The notes under the pieces: generated by a model | Told to the model about the DNA's origin: nothing | Databases searched by the model: none | What the model saw: the letters and a program-made list of their open reading frames with translations, nothing else | In this document: positions 6,927 to 56,715 of the stretch, in pieces | Layout of the letters: each line of letters starts with the position of its first letter | Position numbering within the stretch: the stretch's first letter is position 1 | Source of the DNA: Octopus vulgaris | Taxonomy: Eukaryota | DNA: 64,000 nt | NCBI GenBank assembly: GCA_951406725.2 | Contig: OX597815.1 | Span: 53,754,001-53,818,000, forward strand | Reading direction: 5' to 3' | Translations under genes and position numbers: made by a program

Positions 6927-7154
6927 ATATATATATATATACATACATACATAGATATATACATACATACATACATAGATATATACATACATCCATCCAT
7001 CCATACATACATACATAATGCATACATGTACATATGCATATACATGTTTGTGTGCTTGTATAAGTGTTTTTGGTATATAAATTTTTTTATGTCATGTTAA
7101 TTTACTTAATACTTTTTAGCAGAGTACTTTATTAAACTCTTAAAGGTTGATTAT

Positions 7155-7196
7155 CAGTGACGTCAAAGTTTCAGTTTATTTACCTTCATCAGACTG
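7155..7196 (-). ncRNA. Minimal type I hammerhead ribozyme, near-intact
   Basis: Minus strand: cagt CTGATGA a ggt-aaataa-act GAAAC tttgac GTC actg. Stem I cagt/actg, GUC cleavage triplet. Confidence 0.7.
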
Positions 7197-7265
7197 TTCG
7201 ATGTAGGCAAGCAAACCGAAACACTGGAACCATTTCCAACTTTCCCTTGGTAACACACACGCACA

Positions 7266-7366: not shown

Positions 7367-7545
7367 TTAAGAAATGTGGGGATTTGGATATGTTGCTTCC
7401 AACACAAGGGGCATGCCTGTTTTAGCAACCAACCTTGTTCCATTGCAGAGTCTGGGTGTACCAAGGTTTCTTAATAGCATTATGGGAGCACCTGTTTTCA
7501 TGATCAGAATGTGTGGTGGAAATCCTGGTGGCTGAAGTGAATTAA
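7367..7545 (-). pseudogene. Helitron Pif1-family helicase fragment
   Basis: [39 protein letters not shown] matches the Helitron helicase motif P.H.L.LK.G.P.MLLRNL....LCNGTRL. Confidence 0.9.
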
Positions 7546-7546
7546 A

Positions 7547-7760
7547 CAATAATAATAATAATAATAACAACAACAACAACGTCGAAAAATAATTTAGGAA
7601 TGAGAACCCAGGTTCGAAATTTCCCCAAGACACCCGATGAAGGCTGGACGGTATATCATCCGAAAGGTTGTGTTAACAACAAACAAGATGAGGACAAATA
7701 TCCGTCAATTGTAAATAATGTAAATAATGTACATAATTGCTCATCTCTTAAACATAGAAC
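7547..7760 (+). mobile_element. Penelope-like pLTR fragment with a mutated hammerhead (7629-7674), inserted in the Helitron
   Basis: gacac CCGATGA a ggctg...catcc GAAA gGTT gtgtt; the segment separates the Helitron N-terminal and helicase pieces. Confidence 0.6.
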
Positions 7761-14194: not shown

Positions 14195-15317
14195 CCAGGT
14201 CATCCCATAAGTTCTGTCCGATTTTACCTTTTTTAAAATTGAATGAAATTTAATTGTATTTTAGAATGTCTAATGGAATTAAAAATTATTTTTATGAATT
14301 TGTGTACAAGTAAGCTAATTAAATATTATTTTACTGAATAATAGAATTAAAATTTCTTTGATTAAAACCCTTTCTAAAATGAAAGTATCCAAAGAGCATT
14401 TAAGGCACCTAATGCTTTATGAATACAAAAAAATGGAAACTCTGCAGCCGAAGCGACTCGAAACGTACCCTCAGTTTATGGGAAAGAATGCTTGAGTGAA
14501 AGAACTTGCAGAAGATGGCTTGCAAAATTCAGAAGTGGAGATTTCAGCCTTGAAGATGAAGATCGAACAGGACGTCCAGTTGAGTTTGATGATAAGCTCT
14601 TTGAGGCATTGCTTGAAGAAAATCCTGCATTATCAGTTGAAGAATTGGCAATAAAGCTTAGATCAAATCATACAACTGTTCATCGTCATCTTCAACAATT
14701 TGGAAAGGTTCCTAAACTTGGAAAATTGGTGCCTCATGAATTGTTCGAAAGCAACCGCAAATCCCGAGTTGACATCTGCTCTTCTCTCCATTCTCGTGAA
14801 CTCATTTCACCCTTTTTGGATAGACTTGTGACTGGTGACGAAAAATGGATCTTCTATCGAAATGTTAAACGTCGTAAACAGTGGCTTGGTAAAAGTGACA
14901 AAGCTCAACCACAACCGAGAAGGGAACTTCATGGGAAAAAGGTTATTCTCTCTATCTGGGGGGATTGCAAAGGAGTAATTCACTTTGAATTGTTACCACC
15001 TAATGCAACAATCAATGCTCAAGTCAGCAATTAGAGTGTTTGAACCAAGCTTTGGAGTGATGTTTCATCAGGACAATGCGCGACCCCACACTGCAAAGAT
15101 CACATCACAGAACATCGAAGAGCTTGGTAGGGAAAAAATTCCTCATTCACATTATTCTTCCGACCTTGCTCCTTCAGGCGACCATTTGTTTCGTAGTTTA
15201 CAGAATCCTTTGGGGGACATAACTTTCGCTAGCCGGGAGGAGATCGAAACTGACATTTAAATATAACATTTGATCACTTGTTTTCTTTATTCGGATTGAA
15301 CTTATTGGACGACCTGA
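14195..15317 (+). mobile_element. Mariner transposon with both TIRs and TA target duplication
   Basis: ta|ccaggtcatcccataagttctgtccga ... tcggattgaacttattggacgacctga|ta. Confidence 0.93.
14379..15260 (+). pseudogene. Mariner transposase, frameshifted
   Basis: MKVSKEHLRHLMLYEY, then LVPHEL, VTGDEKW, HQDNARPH and YSSDLAPSGDHLF; at least two frameshifts and deletions. Confidence 0.93.
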
Positions 15318-17498: not shown

Positions 17499-18405
17499 CA
17501 GTGGTTCTCAACTGCTTTTTATCTATGGACCCCTTTGATTACTATTCTATTCTGGTGGACTCACACAGCCATTCAATGTTTAAAAACTAGTTTATAGATA
17601 CTTCTTTCAAAATTCCTATTTTGCCTTTCATACATTAACCTGTGTAAGCTGAACTATGTAAACTATCCGAGACAGAAACGAAGCTGTTTCTTGCAATAAA
17701 ATTGGGCTGTCCGGAAAGTTCGTGCCGATTTTTAAAAGAAAGAAAAAGGTCAATAAGTACTTGCCATTACCCAATCTTTACCAGGTGCACATGAACGACG
17801 GATTTTCATAGGTTGAGGCTTTCTGCCAATTCTCGGGTTGTGCAATGTGGGTTATTCTCAATTAATGACTTGATTTGGTCATCATCTGTAGTGGATGGTC
17901 TGCCTAATCTTCTCTTTATCAATAAGGCTACAATCTCAGCTCGGAACTTTGCGATCCACTTCCGTAAAGTTCTTTCGGATAAAGAAACATCACCGTAAAC
18001 TGCGCATATTTCTTTGGTTGCTTGTGAGGCATTTTTCCCTTCACGGAACAAGAAAAGCATTAAGTGCCAAAAAGGAACTTTCTTATCTTCCATTTTAAAG
18101 GGTTACAGAATTAACATAGGTTATAGGAACATAAACCTTCTTCCACGAAAAGATAGCTTAAAATGTGCTCTAAATGTGGGTGAAGTCAAATCCTATTTTA
18201 TGGGCTCAGCCATGTTCTAAAATAAGTCGAAAGGTAAGCTACAGTAAATCGGCACGAACTTGTCGGACAACCTAATACATCCAGAGTAACATTTCTTCAA
18301 GGACACTTTATATACTTCTGTGTGTTCTGTGTGTACCCAATTTATTATTTTGCTTACATGGACTCTCTCTCAATTTCTTATATGGACCCCGGTTGAGAAC
18401 CACTT
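17499..18405. mobile_element. Non-autonomous hAT (Buster/Charlie-type) element hosting a mariner
   Basis: TIRs cagtggttctcaa / ttgagaaccact; decayed 8-bp TSD gacaacat / gattacac. Confidence 0.8.
17702..18275 (-). mobile_element. Internally deleted mariner retaining the N-terminal HTH region (ORF 17806-18093)
   Basis: TIRs ttgggctgtccggaaagttcgtgccgattt / aaatcggcacgaacttgtcggacaacctaa; MEDKKVPFWHLMLFLFREGKNASQATKEICAVYG...GRPS...TTRELAESL. Confidence 0.92.
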
Positions 18406-37784: not shown

Positions 37785-39202
37785 TAACCAAATGAATAAT
37801 AACAGACGATGGATAATTGTCAGCTCATTACAGCCGTTTCTTAAGCATTTTTAAATAGAAGAATGAAAACATTGCTTCATTCAGAAAACCGTAATCATCC
37901 GATGAAAGGTAATTTCACAAACAAAAAAATATCCCAAGAATACAGCAGGGACGACAGACTTCAGTCACGGCCCTGTCGGTTTTTTGTCGTGATGTAATGT
38001 TCTCATCTTCTATAAAAAAAAGATGAAAGAAACGGTTGTAATGAGCTGACAATTATCCATCGTCTGCTATTATTCATTTTGATTATAATTCACTAACGGG
38101 ATTTACGACATGTCGCACGGCCTGGAGAATACCAGTAACGCACAATCAACGTAACGTGTGCTTTAGACCAGCCCTTAGGCGCTAAATACTCATAGGGATC
38201 CGATATGATATGGCTCAATCATTCTTCGGAACCACAGGTTTATCCAATCCTACCTGTTGTATATTATTTCAAGTATATATTATTTCAAGTACCCGATTCT
38301 GTCTGAATCCTTATTTTACTATATGTAAACATACATACATACATACATACATACATACATACATAATATATATGCTGGCCACTTGATCAGATCGATATTT
38401 AAATATCGATATTATCCTTATTTATAAATTTATATAATTCGTCAATTCAATGCGGTGTTTATTTTTGACCATATCGCGCTTGTGAGGTGGTTCACGGGCA
38501 ATTCACACTGGTCTTGTACATACGAGCATATATATGTATGTATGGACGTTCGTATATGTAAGTATAACGTGTGTTCTGTATATATGTATTTGTATTTATG
38601 TGCCCATCTGGTATATTCAACTGACGAAGGCAGAACTTATTTGAAGCAAACCCAGAAATCAAAGATCTTGAATTATCCAGTAAAATCGTTTTTTGCTAGT
38701 TTATTTTGTCTCTCTGTCATATCTCATGGCGCGATATGAACATTTAAGGTGGTTTTTAGGTCAGGGTTTTGATTGCTATCTCGGCATGGTGGTATCTCTC
38801 AGATACCCTTATTTATAGTCTTATATATATATACACGACGGGCCTTTTTCAGTTTTCATGTTTCAAATCCACTCACTGCGCTCTTGTCGGTCCTAGGCTG
38901 TGGTAGAAAAGTGGGAAAGAACCCGGAACCATGTGGTTGGGAAACAAGCTTTTTACCACACAGCCTCGCCAACCTATGCACACGCATTTTATAAAACGCT
39001 CTCAGTGATTAAATGTTCCGCTCACACCAGACTCTCAGTTTATAAATAATAGTTTAAAGCTTCCTTTTGTCATGAAGTAGTGTTCTCATCTTCTATAAAA
39101 AAGAAGTGAAAGAAACAGTTGTAATGAGCTGACAATTATCCATCGTCTGCTATTATTCATTTTGATTATAATTCACCAACGGGATTTACGACTTGTCGCA
39201 CG
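37785..39202. mobile_element. Penelope-like pLTR arrangement: one inverted copy (37785-37884) and two direct copies (37985-38119, 39065-39202) of a 100-135-bp unit
   Basis: Shared gaaac(g/a)g(t/c)tgtaatgagctgacaattatccatcgtctg; direct copies 1083 bp apart; a degenerate HHR-like motif in each. Confidence 0.7.
38615..38673 (+). ncRNA. Type I hammerhead ribozyme candidate
   Basis: attcaa CTGACGA agg...ccca GAAA tc aaa g ATC ttgaat: 6-bp stem I, stem III ATC/GAT, AUC triplet; stem II is weak. Confidence 0.65.
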
Positions 39203-39431: not shown

Positions 39432-40117
39432 CCAAGGCTAGCATATAGGCACGAGGCGATAAGGACCGTGCCTCGAGTCTATATGCTATAACTTTTCAAA
39501 ATCCACCACCATCGCGCGGTTTCTCAGCAGTAAATATAACTGCCGATTTAATTTCAAAATTATCCAAAAAATCTTTTTATCATTAATTAATAAATTTTAG
39601 GGTAGCAAAAAATATCTAGAAAAATTCTCCGCTACCAGCGGTCAAGTGAGAAAGAAAAAATAGTCAATAGACTATGTAATATACATTCAAACATATAAGA
39701 GATGGCCATAATAGGACATCTGACTCACTAGAAAGAGCAGTTAAACTCCAAACCACTAATAGTTGTAATTCTGAAATATATACATATATATATATATATA
39801 TATACACATATATATATATATACGTATATATATATGGCATTGCATAAACCGCTTATGTTTTGCAATATAAATAATTAAATAAATAAATACATAAATAATA
39901 ATTTTACGCCACAGCTTATAATCCAGATATTTTTATAGAATTGTATCCAGCATATTCCTTTTAGACATTAGCGTGGAAATACTTGAGAAGGTGAGATTAT
40001 ACAAAATTTATATTTGAATTTATATTACAAAGACTCGTAAAAAATAAAATTAGTACAATGAACAACAGTATAATTGAAATTATATAAAGATACTTTAAAC
40101 AAATCATATACATATAT

Positions 40118-40288
40118 ACAGGAGTGGCTGTGTGGTTAGTAGCTTGCTTACCAACCACATGGTTCCGGGATAAATACTGGGCTTACAAAGAATAAGTCCC
40201 GGGGTCGATTTGCTCGACCAAAGGCGGTGCTCCAGCATGGCCGCAGTCAAATGACTGAAACAAGTAAAAGAGTAAAGAGTAAAGAGTA
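40118..40288 (+). mobile_element. SINE family A, head fused to tail (internal deletion)
   Basis: caggagtggctgtgtggttag...ggttccggg joined to ataaatactgggcttacaaag...gactgaaacaagtaaaag. Confidence 0.88.
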
Positions 40289-40360
40289 TATCAATAACAA
40301 CATGAATATATAAAAATAAAATATAATATATTCAAGAAACCATACTTCAGGAACAATATA

Positions 40361-40864
40361 TTATTTTCTACTCCAGGTACAAGGCCCGAATTTTTTTTGG
40401 AGTGGGGCCAGTCGATTAAATCTGCCCCAGTATGTAACTGGTACTTAATTTATCAACCCCGAAAGGATGAAAGGCAAAGTCGACCGCAGCGGATTTGAAT
40501 TCAGAACGTAACGGCAGACGAAATACCTCTAAGCATTTCGCCCAGCATGCTAACGTTTCTGCCAGCTCGCCGCCTTTTTAAAGTCAACCTCGGCGGAATT
40601 TGAACTCAGAACGTAGCGGCAGGCGAAATACCTATTTCTTTACTACCCACAAGGGGCTAAACACAGAGAGAACAAACAAGGACAGACAAACGGATTAAGT
40701 CGATTATATCGACCCCAATGCGTAACTGGTACTTAATTTATCGACCCAGAATGTATGAAAGGCAAAGTCGATCTCGGCGGAACTTGAACTCAGAACGTAA
40801 CGGCAGACGAAATACCGCTGGGCATTTCGCCTGGCGTGCTAACGTTTCTTCCAGCTCGCCACCT
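40361..40864 (-). mobile_element. SINE family B multimer with 15-bp TSD
   Basis: TSD ttcaggaacaatata at 40346-40360 and 40865-40879. Confidence 0.9.
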
Positions 40865-40969
40865 TTCAGGAACAATATAAGTAAGATTTTTTTTTTAACA
40901 TATAGAAGAGAGAATACTGGATTTAGTAACAAAAAGAATTAAAAGCACTGTTTTCTTTAGATATTTGGT

Positions 40970-41860
40970 TTTCGAAATTTACAATATCTGTTTCAAAGGT
41001 GAGTTTGGCAGGCCAGGCTCTTGTCAGCCTTACTATGGTAGCAATTTATTTTGCGAGATGCAGTGATTCCAAAATCTATAAGCGAAAAATAGAATCAAAC
41101 AACTTTTTGTAATCAGAAATGTTATAGCCAGCTTTCTCTTGAGTTTTTGATGTTTAGAACAGCATAGTTTTTGTAATGAAATGTTGCTAGATAAAATCTA
41201 ACACAACTTTCTATCGGCCTCTCATTAATCACTACCTTGTTGGACTGGAATACAGTTTTGGAGAAAATGACAAATGCTTAGATAAGCAATAGCCCTATAA
41301 TTTTGCGCCAAGTCTTGTATTGGCTATCACGTTTATCTATATTATCGTAAGCCAATTTGGTATGTCAATTCGACCTTCTGCTGCTGTCTTAAATATGCAC
41401 AAGTTGTTAACGACCTGTCGAACGTTAACATGTTGTAGCAGTATCCATCTATTAAGTCTATTCCTGGTTTCTTTTCATTATGCATCTCTCTAGTTTTAAA
41501 GTGTTTTGAAGTGGATGGTGTATTCTATTCAGACATGATGCAGTGTAGTTGAAATATTTCTCTCGCTTCCGGGTATTGGAACAAAATGATTGAAGATTTT
41601 ATTGAAAATGTAGTGAGTGCTTACTGAATTGTTATTTTCCTTCAAACTCTGGTATCACAGGTTATTGGTTCGCGGGGTAAACTTGTGGTTAATGATGGCT
41701 CGTTATTATCTTTTCAGCAGCGTAATTTCTCACTGAAAGTCTGGAGTTTATACTTAAGAGTTATTAATTTTCCGTCAAAAGTGTGGAGATTAGAATCTCT
41801 ATATGATTAAGGTGTTGCTAATGTTAGCTGACCTTATTGTTCACATTATACCTTATGAAT
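40970..41860 (-). mobile_element. Very degraded L1/Tx1-like LINE fragment
   Basis: Minus-strand peptides HTFDGKLITLK and LCIFKTAAEGRIDIPNW resemble the post-RT motifs S..GK..L.K and L..PK..GGLG.P. Confidence 0.4.
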
Positions 41861-42402
41861 GTATCTAAAGGTTCGATTTAAGCCGCCTAAGTTATTGTAC
41901 AGATATATCGACATACTGACGTATATGCATAAGGTTATGTATTAGTTTATGTATGTATGTATGTATGTATGTATGTATGTATGTATGTATGTATGTATGT
42001 ATGTATGTATGTATGTATGAATGTATGTATGTATTTATGTATGTATGTATGTATTAGTTTAGCACAAAGCAATCTCCACAGATATTGATTTGTGCTGAGT
42101 ACAGATGCTAAACTCCTCCGTTCGAACTGTTCTAATCCCCAGTTTTGATAAGTAATATTTCCGCACAAAATGTTTTCTACTATTTTTCAACTCTTATGCA
42201 TATCTCACACAAATATAACATTTATATACTATTCTGGAGAACTGAAATAGGCAGATGTTCTTTAAGAGGACACACCTTTGTTTATGATCATACTTACATA
42301 CCATATATATATTCTCTTATACTCCTCTATACGTTTCAGTCATTTGATTGTGGCCATGCTGGAGCACCGCCTTGCATGTATGTATGTATGTATGTATGTA
42401 TG

Positions 42403-42468
<66 letters not shown>

Positions 42469-42881
42469 TGTATGTATGTATTATGTATGTATGTATACAC
42501 ACACAAATATCTTTTTATTTGGTTCAGTCATCTGACTGCAGCTATGCTGAGGTGTTTTTCAGTCGAAGGAATCGATTCCAAGTTTTATTCTTTGTAAGCC
42601 TAATATTTAATCTGTCGGATACTTTAACCGAACCGTTAGTTTACGCACCTACACACCTACTTCGATTCTCAAGCGCTGCTGGAGGGACAAACACAGGTAC
42701 AGATAGTGTATCGTATAGCCAGCTAGAGACAATATTTCTTGGGGCTAAATAGCAGTAACATGTTGGCAAATAATCTTTACTTTAGACTACTGTTACTGAA
42801 TGTCTCTCGGTAAGTGATTTAGAAATAGTGATGTTTCTATCTATTAGATCAGTGTCTGTGTGTTACTTTGAAAATTATATA

Positions 42882-42947
<66 letters not shown>

Positions 42948-42985
42948 CAGGAGTTTAGCAGCGTTATCTCTAGCCAAGCAGTTAT

Positions 42986-43030
42986 TCTATGCCGAGGAAG
43001 GGAAATAACCCAAAAACCGCGGTCCGCAGA
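42986..43030 (+). ncRNA. Satellite hammerhead, copy 1 (core mutated)
   Basis: tctatg CCGAGGA a ggg-aaataa-ccc a AAAAC cgcg GTC cgcaga. Confidence 0.65.
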
Positions 43031-43344
43031 TATAGCTTTGTGCTAAGTGGGGATGCTAAACTCTTCTTTTCGAAAATATAAGGACACAGATAGTGTGTCG
43101 TAAAGCCAGATGGAGACGATGTTTCCTGGGGTTAAATAGCAGTAACATTTTCCCAACCGGGACTGCCACATTATGTTGGCAAATAATCTTTACTTTAGAG
43201 TACTCTTACTGAATATCACTTGTTGAGAGATTTAAAAATTACAATGTTTCTATTTATTAGATCACTGTCTGTGTGTTACTTTAAAAATCATATATATATT
43301 TTAAAACAGGAGTTTAGCAGAGTCATCTCTAGCCAAGTAGTTAT

Positions 43345-43389
43345 TCTGTACTGAGGAAGAGAAATAGCGCAGAAACCGCGGTCCATAGA
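43345..43389 (+). ncRNA. Satellite hammerhead, copy 2 (core intact, stems eroded)
   Basis: tctgta CTGAGGA a gag-aaatag-cgc a GAAAC cgcg GTC cataga. Confidence 0.7.
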
Positions 43390-43548
43390 TATTGCTTTAT
43401 GCTGAGTGGAGATGTTAAACTCCTATGTTCGAAAATATAAGGACACATAGTGTGTCGTATAGCCAGCTAGAGACGTTGTTTCCTGGGGCTAAATAACAGC
43501 AACATTCGTCCCATCCTGGACAGCCACATTATGTTGGAAAATAATCTT

Positions 43549-43587
<39 letters not shown>

Positions 43588-43775
43588 ATCTCCTCCTTCT
43601 CCTTCTTCTTCTTCGCTGCCAGGAATTTCCCAACGACCTCGAACCCACAAGAGTAAAAAAAGAGTCAGAGACAGGAAGAAACAAGGAAAATGCCCCTTGT
43701 ATTTGAATACTATGCAAACATTCTTTTAAAAAAACTTTTTATTTAATTTTTCCAAAATTTAATTGTTTTCCATAC

Positions 43776-43815
43776 TTAGAGTTGAAAAAGTCTCAATGAC
43801 TGAAACCGATACTAA
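43776..43815 (+). ncRNA. Degenerate hammerhead-like motif in a pLTR-like segment (about 43620-43870)
   Basis: ttag ag TTGAAAA agtc-tcaat-gact GAAAC cg ATA ctaa. Confidence 0.4.
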
Positions 43816-43943
43816 CATGTTTTTTATGATAAAATTATTTTAGCTTTTTCTACTTTGACTTATTTTCCTTATACACACACCCACATCCATACACACACAC
43901 ATACACGTACACATACACACACATATATATATATACATATATA

Positions 43944-44515
43944 TGGTCACCATATAGTGCCAACTAACAGAGTAGCTTGAAACAGTCCAACATTAAAAAG
44001 ATTGAAACAGTGCGGCAGGTGAGCTACAGGGATGGGGCGAAGGCGCGACATATATACAATAATCTACATATGGAAAACTGTAGAAGGGCTTGTACCTAAT
44101 TTCGGCATTGGATGTTATTCAAATGCCAGAACTGGCCGTTTTTTATTATACCAACGGTATCATCCACCCATCTAAATTCAGGACCAGGTACAGCAATAGT
44201 CTAGGGTCCAAAGGCCCACAGTTCTTCAATGACCTGTCACAATGACCTGCATAAAGTGGAAGTAGATGTCTTCAAAAAGGAATCCTCCTTTCCACAATAC
44301 CGGATGAATCAACAGCCCGGCATGAAGTGCAGACAAGAGCAGCGGAAACAAACTCCCTTATACACAGAATAGGCAAACAGCTGGGACAAAAGCACATACA
44401 GGAGTGGTGATGTGAAACACCCCAGACTGAGGAGATTAGAAAGACCACGGTGATGGTCCAGCATGACCACAGCCGCGTGGCTGAAACGAGTAAAAGAATA
44501 ATAGAATAAAAGAAT
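43944..44515 (+). mobile_element. CR1-group LINE 3' end including tail
   Basis: WSPYSA, RRDIYTIIYIWKTVEGLVPNFGI...NARTGR, NSLGSKGPQFFNDL; ends in ccagcatgaccacagccgcgtggctgaaacgagtaaaagaata. Confidence 0.8.
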
Positions 44516-44538
44516 GTATAAACACACACACGCACACA

Positions 44539-44613
<75 letters not shown>

Positions 44614-44673
44614 ACACACGTAATCATGAGTTTGCGTGCGTGTATGTGTATATTTGCATATGTGCATATTCTA

Positions 44674-45895
44674 TCTGCTTGAGCATAAAGTAAGCAATGT
44701 TTTGAACCACGAAGAATTTGTACCGGATTTTTGCCGAGTCTTGGATTCTTAAAAACTTTTTTATTTGAAATTTTCTGATAAAAGACACTTAGACTTGCCC
44801 AAATGCCTCAATAAATTAACATTGATATTTTTTCCACCGTTGTTACAATCATCTGAAATGGTATTGTCAAAGTGCGATATTGAAGCAAGTTTGCTCCTCA
44901 ACTTCAAATAAGGAGGTAAAGCAGCTGAAACTGCTTTCGATGTTAACGAAACGTTTGGTGAGGAAATGACCAGTGAGTGGTCAGTTCGAAAATTGTTTAA
45001 ACGATTTCGCAATGGGAACCGGGACCTTGAAGATTGTGAGCGTAGTGGACACCAATCTGTCATCGATGACGGTCAGTTATAGTTCGTCATTGAGAAAGAT
45101 CTACGAAACCACTCGATAACTGGCAGCCAGAAAACTGCCTGCAGCCATTCGCATGCGATCAGAAATTCAAAAAGCTCAACAAATTGGCACCACGCGATTT
45201 GAATGAAAATCAGAAAATATGCAGATATGAAATTTACTCATCGCTTCTTCTCCCTAACCAGACCGATCCATTTCTCGACCGTATTGTAACTTGCGATGAA
45301 AAGGGGATTCTGTACAGTAATGAAAAAACGTCCTTCGTAGTGGTTGGACTAAAATGAAGCACCAAAAACCTTCCCTAAAATCGATCTATTCAAAAAGAAG
45401 GTTATGGTGACTGTTTGATGCTGTTCTTGCTGGACTCATCCACCAGAATTTCTGAAAATCCGGAAAACATATTGCCATGCAGAAACATATTGCCATAAAA
45501 TTGCTGAAATGAACGAAAAACTGCTACTCCTCTGTCCCAGACTGGTCAACAGAAAAGGGCTAATCATTCTTCATGACAATGCTTGACCACAGGTTTCACT
45601 TATAACGCTCCAGAAGTTGAGTGAACTTGGCTACGAAGTTCTTCCCCACACAGCTTATTCTCCAGACAATTCTTCCACCGACTACCACTTTTTCAAGGAC
45701 CTTGGTAGTTTCCTGCGAGAGGAGTTTAAAAATAAAACCGATGCTGAAAGTGCGCTCCAGAACTCCAGATTTTTATGTTACCAGAATAAACAAACTTGTA
45801 ACTCGATGTGTTGATTGTAATGGCACTTACTTTGATGAAATATCTTGTGATGAATTTCATATTTCAAAACGTTGTTTACTTTTTACTCAGCCTGA
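44674..45895 (+). mobile_element. Degraded full-length mariner with both TIRs and TA TSD
   Basis: ta|tctgcttgagcataaagtaagcaatgttttgaa ... ttcaaaacgttgtttactttttactcagcctga|ta; ATG at 44858; IVTCDEK, HDNA*PQ, YEVLPHTAYSPD...DYHFF. Confidence 0.92.
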
Positions 45896-46207
45896 TAGGT
45901 TTTTGTACGTACGTATGCACGTATGAGAGAATGCGGTGCCATCTTGTAATCTTTTATTCTTTTACTCATCGATCCCTAGTCTGGGATCATACCTGGGCAC
46001 TGCTAGTAAAAGGATTTTAGTTATGTCGAGCTTTGTATTTCGTCTTGTTTTCAGTCAAGAAGATAAAGTCAATAAGGACTTGATGGCACGTAACTCGACA
46101 GAACCAAACTACATAATGTATGCTTGTTCCAAACACTGATTCTGCAGTTTATCACACCTTTTATTCAATTGATTTCTTCCTACCAACCTACCTACCTACC
46201 TACATGT

Positions 46208-46302
<95 letters not shown>

Positions 46303-46305
<3 letters not shown>

Positions 46306-46821
46306 GTTGTCCGGAAAGTTCGTGCCGATTTTTAAAGGAAAGAAAAAGCTCAATAAATACTTGCCATTACATTTTTAATCAACCAAACATGAACCATTTT
46401 GTTGCACAATGCGTCTCCATCTTTCCTTTAACTTGAAAATACCCTCTTTCCAGAATTGAGGTGGTTTCATCGCAAAGAATTCATCAAGGTATCTTTTTAC
46501 GTCATCCAAGGAATTGGAATGTTTACTATTAAGACTATTCTGCAGAGATCTGAATAAGTGGAAATCAGAAGGAGCAATATCTGGTGAATATGGAGGGTGG
46601 TGTAACACATCCCAGCCGAGCTGCAGCAATTTTTGTCTGGTTCCCAAAACATCAAGTGCCGAAAATGAACTTTCTTCCATTTTAAAGGGTTACAGAATTA
46701 ACATAGGTTATAGGAACACAAATCTTCTTCCACGAAAAGATAGCTTAAACTGTGCTCTTAATGGAGGTGTAGTCAAATCCTATTATATGGACTCAACCAT
46801 GTTCTAAAATAAGTCGAAAGG
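46303..46821 (-). mobile_element. Internally deleted mariner of the same family as 17702-18275, retaining the C-terminus (ORF 46375-46680)
   Basis: Same TIR tgggttgtccggaaagttcgtgccgattt and same 5' UTR; LGWDVLHHPPYSPDIAPSDFHLFRSLQ...W...NG; second TIR missing. Confidence 0.92.
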
Positions 46822-55482: not shown

Positions 55483-56715
55483 CTAGAAAACGCACCCGTC
55501 CTTTGGACGGTTTAAGTTGCTTTGGTGGTATTTTTTCACCAAATAATTGTACGACCGAGAAGGTTTATGAGTAGGACAGCAATCTATGTTTCCAATTAAC
55601 CTAGGAACGAAAAATAAAATTGAAGTCTGGTTATTGTGAAGGTCGTTGCACTTAAAGGATCATAGATCATATAAGTTTGCAAGCGATGCAAAGTAGAACT
55701 ACTGAAGTGTTTTGGGAGTAGATTATGGATAATGGCTACAAAATATAGTTGATTTTTAAGCATATTTTATTCACTTTTATTTTCATATATAACATATAAA
55801 CATGCACATCTTTTGGAACATTGTAACTTTATAAGATTTTGCAGGCACATTTTTAAATTAACATTTATTTACATGAAAGAAAATTATCGGAGACATAACA
55901 AGTGTTAGGCGGAGGTAAAGAATACGCACACCATCCGTTTTCGGCTGTGCATATTCTTTACCCTCGCTCACGTGAAGTGCTAAAAATAATAGCTAAATAA
56001 GATTTTTTTTGATAAATCTTTTAAATTAACATAAACATTTATTTACATGGAAAAATTTACTGGAGACATAACACAATGTTGTGCTAAAAATAACAACTAA
56101 AGATTTTTTGGATAAATCTTCAAAATTGACATAAACATTTACATGAAAGAACATTACCGGAAACATAACACGTTTTGTGCTAAAACTAACAGCTAAATAA
56201 GAAATTTGGATAAGTCTTTTGAATTAACATAAACATTTATTTATATGAAAGATAAATACTGGAGACATAACACGTGTTGTGGTAAAATTAACAGCTAAGT
56301 AAGACTTTTTGGATAAATCTTTTAAATTAACATAACACGTGTTGCGCTAAAAATAACAGCTAAATAAGTTTTTTGGATAAATCTTAAATTTACATAAACA
56401 TTTATTTTCATGAAAAAAAATTACCGGAGACATAACACGTGTTGTGTTACCGTTGCAGGTAGGCAGTTGAAATAAATAAATAGACAAAATTCTTTCACTT
56501 TTAAAAAAATTATGAAAGACCCTACAAACCAAGAAAAACAACTATGTCCATTTACGTCCATTTACGCGTGAGCTCTGGGCAAAATGTTATAGTGCACGAC
56601 CATCCTTGGGACATAAGGAATGCGTGTGTAAAGTTTGGTGAAAATAGGTTGAGAATTGTGGAAATGTATGCGTTAGTCATTATACATACACATACTGTGA
56701 TTTATATATACTAGA
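55483..56715 (-). mobile_element. Complete non-autonomous Helitron inserted in the hAT
   Basis: Minus strand reads A|TCTAGTATATATAAA ... hairpin ccgtcc-3nt-ggacgg ... CTAG|T; A-T insertion site, no TSD. Confidence 0.85.
55855..56447. repeat. Minisatellite of about 100 bp inside the Helitron
   Basis: gga(g/a)acataac at 55889, 56062, 56159, 56261 and 56426, plus a partial unit. Confidence 0.9.

Follow-up and report, generated by a model that had tools for sequence, protein, structure and literature searches.

Non-LTR retrozymes are repeats of 150–450 bp with less than 50% GC, and have already been described in coral, mussel, and axolotl (PMC7229834). Retrozymes have also been linked to pseudo-LTRs carried by Penelope-like elements (PLEs) (10.64898/2026.07.22.740005). 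Likened by description rather than by sequence comparison, the closest known systems to the octopus repeat reported here appear to be the axolotl 353-nt and mussel 350–390-nt families. The axolotl family (Rtz_353, with the ribozyme HHR_Amex2) resembles the octopus unit in being a tandem of ~350 nt with a type I hammerhead ribozyme (HHR), a 2-bp helix III with a tetraloop, and a mismatched basal pair in helix II; it differs in that the mismatch is U·U rather than A·A, the host is a vertebrate rather than an invertebrate, and activity and circles have been shown in axolotl, whereas the octopus unit is known from sequence only (PMC7229834). HHR_Amex2 is a weak ribozyme on its own (22% cleaved in 1 h) and a better one when dimeric (PMC7229834). 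The retrozymes of Mytilus galloprovincialis share with the octopus unit a mollusc host, a repeat size of 350–390 bp, a type I HHR, and low GC; their circles have been shown, however, and some of these hide the HHR, whereas the fold predicted for the octopus unit leaves the core open (PMC7229834). Newt satellite 2/HHR_Amex1 is likewise an HHR tandem (~330 bp) that functions in dimeric form and has a palindromic helix III, but this helix has 1 bp against 2 bp in octopus, and the octopus array has just 2.3 units (PMC7229834). The HHRs of PLE pseudo-LTRs are also of type I and arranged in tandem, their helix III is palindromic, and A9 is followed by an additional nucleotide (PMC4209133; 10.64898/2026.07.22.740005); compared with the PLE motifs as described there, the octopus motif has no ORF nearby, a short helix II, an extra A before G12 as well, and a long rod that extends helix I. 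For cephalopods, 235 Rfam-type hammerhead loci have been counted, and counted only, in the giant squid (PMC6962438). No described cephalopod retrozyme family was found in the literature searched, a collection that lacks most subscription papers and repeat databases, and neither "hammerhead" nor "ribozyme" occurs in the available part of the Octopus vulgaris repeat annotation (PMC13282606).

The window analysed here, a stretch of 64,000 nt from the genome of O. vulgaris, contains an array of 2.3 head-to-tail units with ~86% identity and a repeat of ~358 bases (Table 1); the 2.3 tandem units had been claimed in an earlier note on this DNA. The same note termed the array a ~360-bp tandem satellite; the monomer size holds, but the start-to-start spacing is non-uniform (387 and 357 nt, owing to the deletion and (TA)n expansion in unit 1), and "satellite" is too strong a word for 2.3 units. 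The hammerhead cores are 359 nt apart, and the HHR-bearing block 42931–43194 is 86% identical to 43290–43552 over 265 nt (E = 4e-85). The tandem array was not reported by TRF when run on the window. A single contig of sequencing run X1, which may be the source sample, spans 43191–43506 with no differences; thus, the locus is not an assembly artefact. The predicted monomer has 36% GC. A Pfam search with curated cut-offs gave no match for the ORF fragments across the locus, and ARAGORN identified no tRNA genes. The dispersed repeat to the left of the array is, we assume, the common octopus SINE. Between the flanks of the array, which ends in microsatellite DNA or in the tails of repeats, neither a target-site duplication nor a terminal inverted repeat of at least 7 nt was found; target-site duplications (>4 bp) are optional for non-LTR retrozymes (PMC7229834). 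Neither a reverse transcriptase (RT) nor a GIY-YIG domain was identified by Pfam in the 98 ORF fragments of 39500–46500 or in the 150 longest elsewhere in the window, and the only matches in this search were fragments of mariner and Pif1. The mariner transposase fragments lie at 14423–15031 (+), 17809–18102 (−), and 44912–45079 (+). The first resembles other sequences at 93% and 82% identity and a Limulus sequence at 78%, and the named matches to a mariner transposase fragment of the window come from Limulus, from Octopus, and from other arthropods. The window also includes a minisatellite at 55969–56397, with periods of 102 nt and 65 nt.

Table 1. Features of the octopus hammerhead repeat locus (positions are those of the window).
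Feature	Position	Strand	Details
Left neighbour, dispersed SINE-like repeat; array inserted into its tail	42513–42695		8 other matches in the window, 70–82% identity
Repeat unit 1	42699–43085	+	387 nt; lacks 26 nt near 42761; (TA)n expansion inside the unit at 42876–42942
Repeat unit 2	43086–43442	+	357 nt
Partial unit 3	43443–43552	+	110 nt; runs into (TAC)n at 43549–43587
Rod (inverted arms) around HHR copy 1	42950–43064	+	−38.5 kcal/mol, z −3.0; 0/200 shuffles as stable
Type I HHR motif, copy 1	42986–43030	+	helix II GGG/CCC intact; core altered by U4C (42993) and G12A (43013); predicted cut after 43024; predicted inactive
Predicted cut-to-cut monomer	43025–43383	+	359 nt; circular fold −87.6 kcal/mol, z −2.65; 0/60 shuffles as stable
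Rod around HHR copy 2	43268–43451	+	inner part 43295–43350 with 43384–43439
Type I HHR motif, copy 2	43345–43389	+	helix I 43345–43350/43384–43389; core 43351–43357 and 43372–43375, intact; predicted cut after 43383
Segment (~85 nt) common to a far larger repeat family	43431–43514	+	from coverage depth; second hairpin inside

Units 1 and 2 each contain an HHR motif with a helix I of 6 bp, a helix II of four positions, and a helix III of 2 bp with a palindromic loop, a layout that is canonical for metazoan type I HHRs (PMC4209133). The palindromic helix III, ACCGCGGT, is present in both copies (43016–43023 and 43375–43382). Three claims of the earlier note proved accurate here: this palindrome, a good stem II with a mutated core in copy 1, and an intact core with an eroded stem II in copy 2. 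The latter core matches the consensus CUGANGA / GAAA / UH perfectly, and helix II (43359–43361/43368–43370) has an A·G mismatch at 43360/43369; in addition, helix I of copy 2 has an A·C mismatch at 43350/43384. In both copies an A·A (43358/43371 and 42999/43012) lies between the core and helix II, with a G-C pair next to it; this is either a mismatched 10.1/11.1 pair or insertions on either side of the G-C pair. The 10.1/11.1 pair is the most conserved after 15.1/16.1, and only U·U is given as tolerated in the available text (PMC3088659). There are precedents for a U·U mismatch and for single insertions, and an A·A in this position occurs nowhere in the portions of the hammerhead literature examined (PMC3088659; PMC4209133; PMC7229834). 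The A·A may lower activity. As candidate partners in a loop 1–loop 2 tertiary contact, there is a bulge six pairs away from the core, at the place expected for loop 1, and an AAAUAA loop 2, which presumably resembles that of Schistosoma.

Part of the stretch is present in 20 of 24 sequencing runs (five organism labels; none recorded as RNA). Four of the 24 runs were compared with one unit (43191–43548) at a likeness of at least 80%: X1 (organism A), X10 (D), X8 (C), and X20 (A, guessed to be RNA), with organisms B and E left out. The matching contig records number 1951 in X1, 1724 in X10, 2160 in X8, and 251 in X20, and most are <95% alike to the unit. For X1, 6 records match at ≥99%, 118 at 95–99%, 677 at 90–95%, and 1150 at <90%; for X20, 2 of the 251 match at ≥99% identity. 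Among the 15 of 66 joints listed, the exact head-to-tail joint (43548 to 43191) is found in six contigs of X10 and one of X20, and in none of X1 or X8, the joints of which are near-equivalent with letters in between. One X10 contig of 689 nt repeats with a period of 358, with a diverged HHR part. The fraction of records that continue into unlike sequence is 0.02. The unit is a dispersed, tandem-forming, multi-copy family common to three organism labels. Because the family is multi-copy, with head-to-tail joints elsewhere, the unit is not confined to a single locus, which the earlier note had named as part of an outcome that would count against it.

Among the 40 of 95 variant rows listed for the four runs, there is no variant in the core or the palindrome. 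At 43338, 43350, 43367, 43369, and 43386, the majority letters restore the helices or loop of the HHR, and each accounts for 60–94% in each of the three DNA runs; at all five positions they agree with copy 1 and with the consensus reconstructed in the earlier note. The family majority thereby mends helix I and the CCC side of helix II. For the GGG side, G at 43360 (the middle G) is absent from the 40 of 95 variant rows listed. Ten of these 40 rows were checked, and each reaches at least about 53% in some run; thus, many copies may hold A·C at 43360/43369, and GGG as the family majority on this side of helix II lacks confirmation. The reconstructed consensus therefore stands for most of its letters, which coincide with the listed family majority, but not for the middle G of the GGG side, and it includes the A·A without drawing attention to it.

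Each HHR caps a long hairpin with arms that directly continue helix I. These arms (ggagtttagca...taaactc) had been recognised in the earlier note, and they do close stable rods, that of copy 2 having an energy of −36.1 kcal/mol (z −3.3; for copy 1, see Table 1). With the majority letters, the z-score of the 116-nt rod changes from −2.7 and −3.0 (the two copies) to −5.4 (0/300 shuffles). The enclosing pairs number 61 (59 Watson–Crick and 2 G·U) vs. 48 in copy 2, and all 11 of the majority changes within them are toward Watson–Crick pairing; these pair counts lean toward the majority version, because the structure was predicted from it. In the circular fold modelled for the monomer, copy 1 supplies the 3′ arm and copy 2 the 5′ arm to which it pairs, and the core is open at the tip of the rod. 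With majority letters the monomer fold has a z-score of −6.1, and the minus strand of −7.2. Because the rod folds equally well on the minus strand, it is no argument by itself for a role as RNA, and only the core gives the strand. The palindrome duplex of a dimer is calculated at −14.1 kcal/mol. The pairing of 3′ arm with 5′ arm in the modelled monomer would be the same pairing that a double hammerhead needs, and would hold the ends for ligation.

The unit also contains a second hairpin (43460–43491; 32 nt), which lies outside the HHR and has counterparts at 42716–42747 and 43104–43133; its pairs are mended by the majority letters (z −2.9; 1/300 shuffles). In the three DNA runs, sequencing depth peaks at 43479–43490, at 126–340 times that of the bins covering the HHR, figures that express depth and not copy number. 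A very large repeat family likely has its conserved core in the segment 43431–43514. Judged by eye, the loose ends before 43426 resemble diverged 3′ arms, so that this larger family may carry related hairpins. Upstream of the array, 42050–42126 (+) forms a hairpin (z −2.8) and is 81–85% identical over 52 nt to the 3′ arm of the unit, without a hammerhead; it is possibly an internally deleted relative. Candidate Pol III A- and B-boxes seen by eye at 43400–43440 and 43460–43485 were dropped, their spacing being too short relative to the consensus.

A strict descriptor of the motif (perfect core, at least 5/6 pairs in helix I, and a palindromic helix III) matched once in 200 dinucleotide-shuffled 64-kb windows, both strands included; this figure is optimistic, because the descriptor was composed after the motif had been seen. 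A loose descriptor gave a mean of 0.375 matches per shuffled window, and three loose matches were reached in 3 of 200 shuffles. Taken alone, each motif of 45–46 nt folds no better than shuffles. Rfam gave no match at the gathering score in the whole 64-kb window, and no hammerhead at E ≤ 10 in 41800–43800 or in either copy alone. For natural, mutated copies, the absence of an Rfam match speaks to the score of the model and not to the anatomy; as the motif escapes Rfam, standard annotation would miss the family. Two further hammerhead-like motifs occur in the window. That at 38605–38680 (+), with the motif at 38621, is perfect in its core and shares with the main unit the A-GG...CC-A arrangement round helix II; it follows TATG-rich DNA, is unlike the main unit in sequence, and folds no better than shuffles. 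The other, at 7140–7205 (−), near 7192, combines a perfect core and an AAAUA loop with A-U as the basal pair of helix II; it lies downstream of a (GT)n run, its fold is no better than those of shuffles, and it gave no Rfam hammerhead at E ≤ 10 (7130–7220). About 200 nt upstream of this third motif, on the same strand, is a fragment of a Pif1 2B domain (7370–7672 (−); E = 2.5e-13), probably a remnant of a Helitron helicase. In scans with the HHR pattern, there were no matches in viral contigs or prokaryote genomes; the one match in metagenome contigs (L001) was GC-rich, bacterial-looking coding sequence with no BLAST similarity to the unit, and was attributed to chance.

We consider it probable that the locus is what remains of an old insertion, now dead, by a non-LTR retrozyme family, and that it comprises 2.3 mutated copies with one type I HHR per unit. 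The features by which retrozymes are recognised at the sequence level are present: the unit size, one type I HHR per unit, multiple copies, non-coding sequence with <50% GC, and a monomer predicted to be self-paired. The class proposed in the earlier note, a retrozyme-like HHR repeat of ~360 nt, is supported by the multiple copies, by the head-to-tail joints elsewhere, and by the fit of the listed majority letters. Mobilisation of the family is probably by PLEs. According to this proposal, read-through transcription of a tandem would yield multimeric RNA (PMC7229834; PMC4209133), in which the hammerheads would cut after GUC, either singly or as a double hammerhead paired through ACCGCGGU. The monomer of ~358 nt would then fold back, with the long arms holding both ends together, and a host ligase of the RtcB type would close the circle. 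A Penelope-like reverse transcriptase would copy the circle for more than one round, giving rise to short tandem insertions, often in microsatellite-rich DNA. The copy described here would have decayed after its insertion, without visible selection on the ribozyme. Counting against the retrozyme reading are the missing Rfam hammerhead match, the A·A next to the core, the A·C that many copies may have in helix II, the equally good fold of the rod on the minus strand, the lack of a target-site duplication of at least 7 nt, and the finding that only one of nine predicted Xenopus retrozymes cleaved in vitro (10.64898/2026.07.22.740005).

An alternative that we regard as unlikely is that the unit is the pseudo-LTR of an autonomous PLE, and the locus a 5′-truncated partial tandem of such an element. 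In this case the type I HHR with its palindromic helix III and the nucleotide added behind A9 would be expected, as these are features of PLE pseudo-LTRs (PMC4209133), and the termination of the array in microsatellite or repeat-tail DNA would be consistent with it; PLEs also account for 21 of the 22 in a Xenopus survey in which 24 of 57 retrozyme families match known elements (10.64898/2026.07.22.740005), and make up 6.83% of the O. vulgaris genome (PMC13282606 supplement). However, no remnant of RT or GIY-YIG exists in the 98 ORF fragments around the locus, the tandem of period 358 recurs elsewhere with so few records entering unlike sequence, and the 6-bp helix I, short helix II, and 2-bp helix III are canonical, whereas minimal PLE HHRs have a helix II of 7–8 bp (PMC4209133). 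The two readings converge in part if pseudo-LTRs gave rise to retrozymes. The long inverted arms might instead matter as DNA, with the unit being a foldback element (MITE-like or Helitron-derived) and the hammerhead a captured, inactive passenger. The near-complete Watson–Crick pairing of the arms (59/61) and their equal folding on both strands would accord with this, as would the small hairpin outside the HHR being the most deeply covered part of the family, and the retention of hairpin and 3′ arm without HHR in 42050–42126. We nevertheless hold a DNA-level element to be decidedly improbable: the arms are internal to the unit and the flanks of the array have no terminal inverted repeat (≥7 nt), helix I runs straight into the arms with the first bulge six pairs from the core, at the expected loop 1, and the unit multiplies head to tail.

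That these very copies are an active source of 359-nt linear or circular RNA is very improbable. The two tandem motifs at a distance of 359 nt, the cut-to-cut sequence that is still predicted to be rod-like, and the two X20 records at ≥99% identity (the run guessed to be RNA) would fit an active locus, but copy 1 is without G12 and U4, and pairs of both helix II and helix I are broken in copy 2. G12 is the general base of the hammerhead. As it has been lost, copy 1 is predicted to be dead. Mutual rescue of the two lesions in a dimer was dismissed on the geometry of the dimer: in a double hammerhead each site would take CUGANGA, helix II, and GAAA from one strand. With one strand giving both core and helix II, and the other only the cut site, the lesions cannot complement each other. 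The release of monomers proposed in the earlier note is therefore not supported for this locus, and a transcript of 42950–43424 is predicted to release none. An active locus is expected to have two consecutive complete HHRs (10.64898/2026.07.22.740005), and here the core of copy 1 is changed twice and helix II of copy 2 is mismatched. Furthermore, the copies differ at 2 of 11 core positions, against 1.6 expected from a background of 21/145; core divergence is thus as neutral decay would give. The locus is a decayed copy, and probably a dead relic. The possibility that the likeness to a hammerhead arose by chance in an ordinary tandem duplication has been largely refuted, and we give it almost no credence; it would accommodate the silence of Rfam, the frequency of the loose descriptor in shuffled windows, and lone motifs that fold like shuffles, but not the rarity of the strict descriptor (1/200) or the mending of the helices by family-majority letters.

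It is conceivable, although quite unlikely, that the locus shows the margin of a cephalopod retrozyme superfamily, very large and so far unreported, in which an A·A-closed hammerhead within a rod of ~60 pairs constitutes an editing-gated ribozyme. If this were true, the circles would be prime substrates for A-to-I editing by the host, and cleavage would be turned on once editing of the A in the A·C of helix II (43360/43369) had restored that helix. As a relic of a non-LTR retrozyme family, the locus probably extends these elements to the octopus lineage, with class and mechanism being those already described. If intact members of the family cleave, the basal A·A of helix II would widen the hammerhead core that is tolerated, and the family would provide an invertebrate test of the proposed origin of retrozymes from Penelope pseudo-LTRs.
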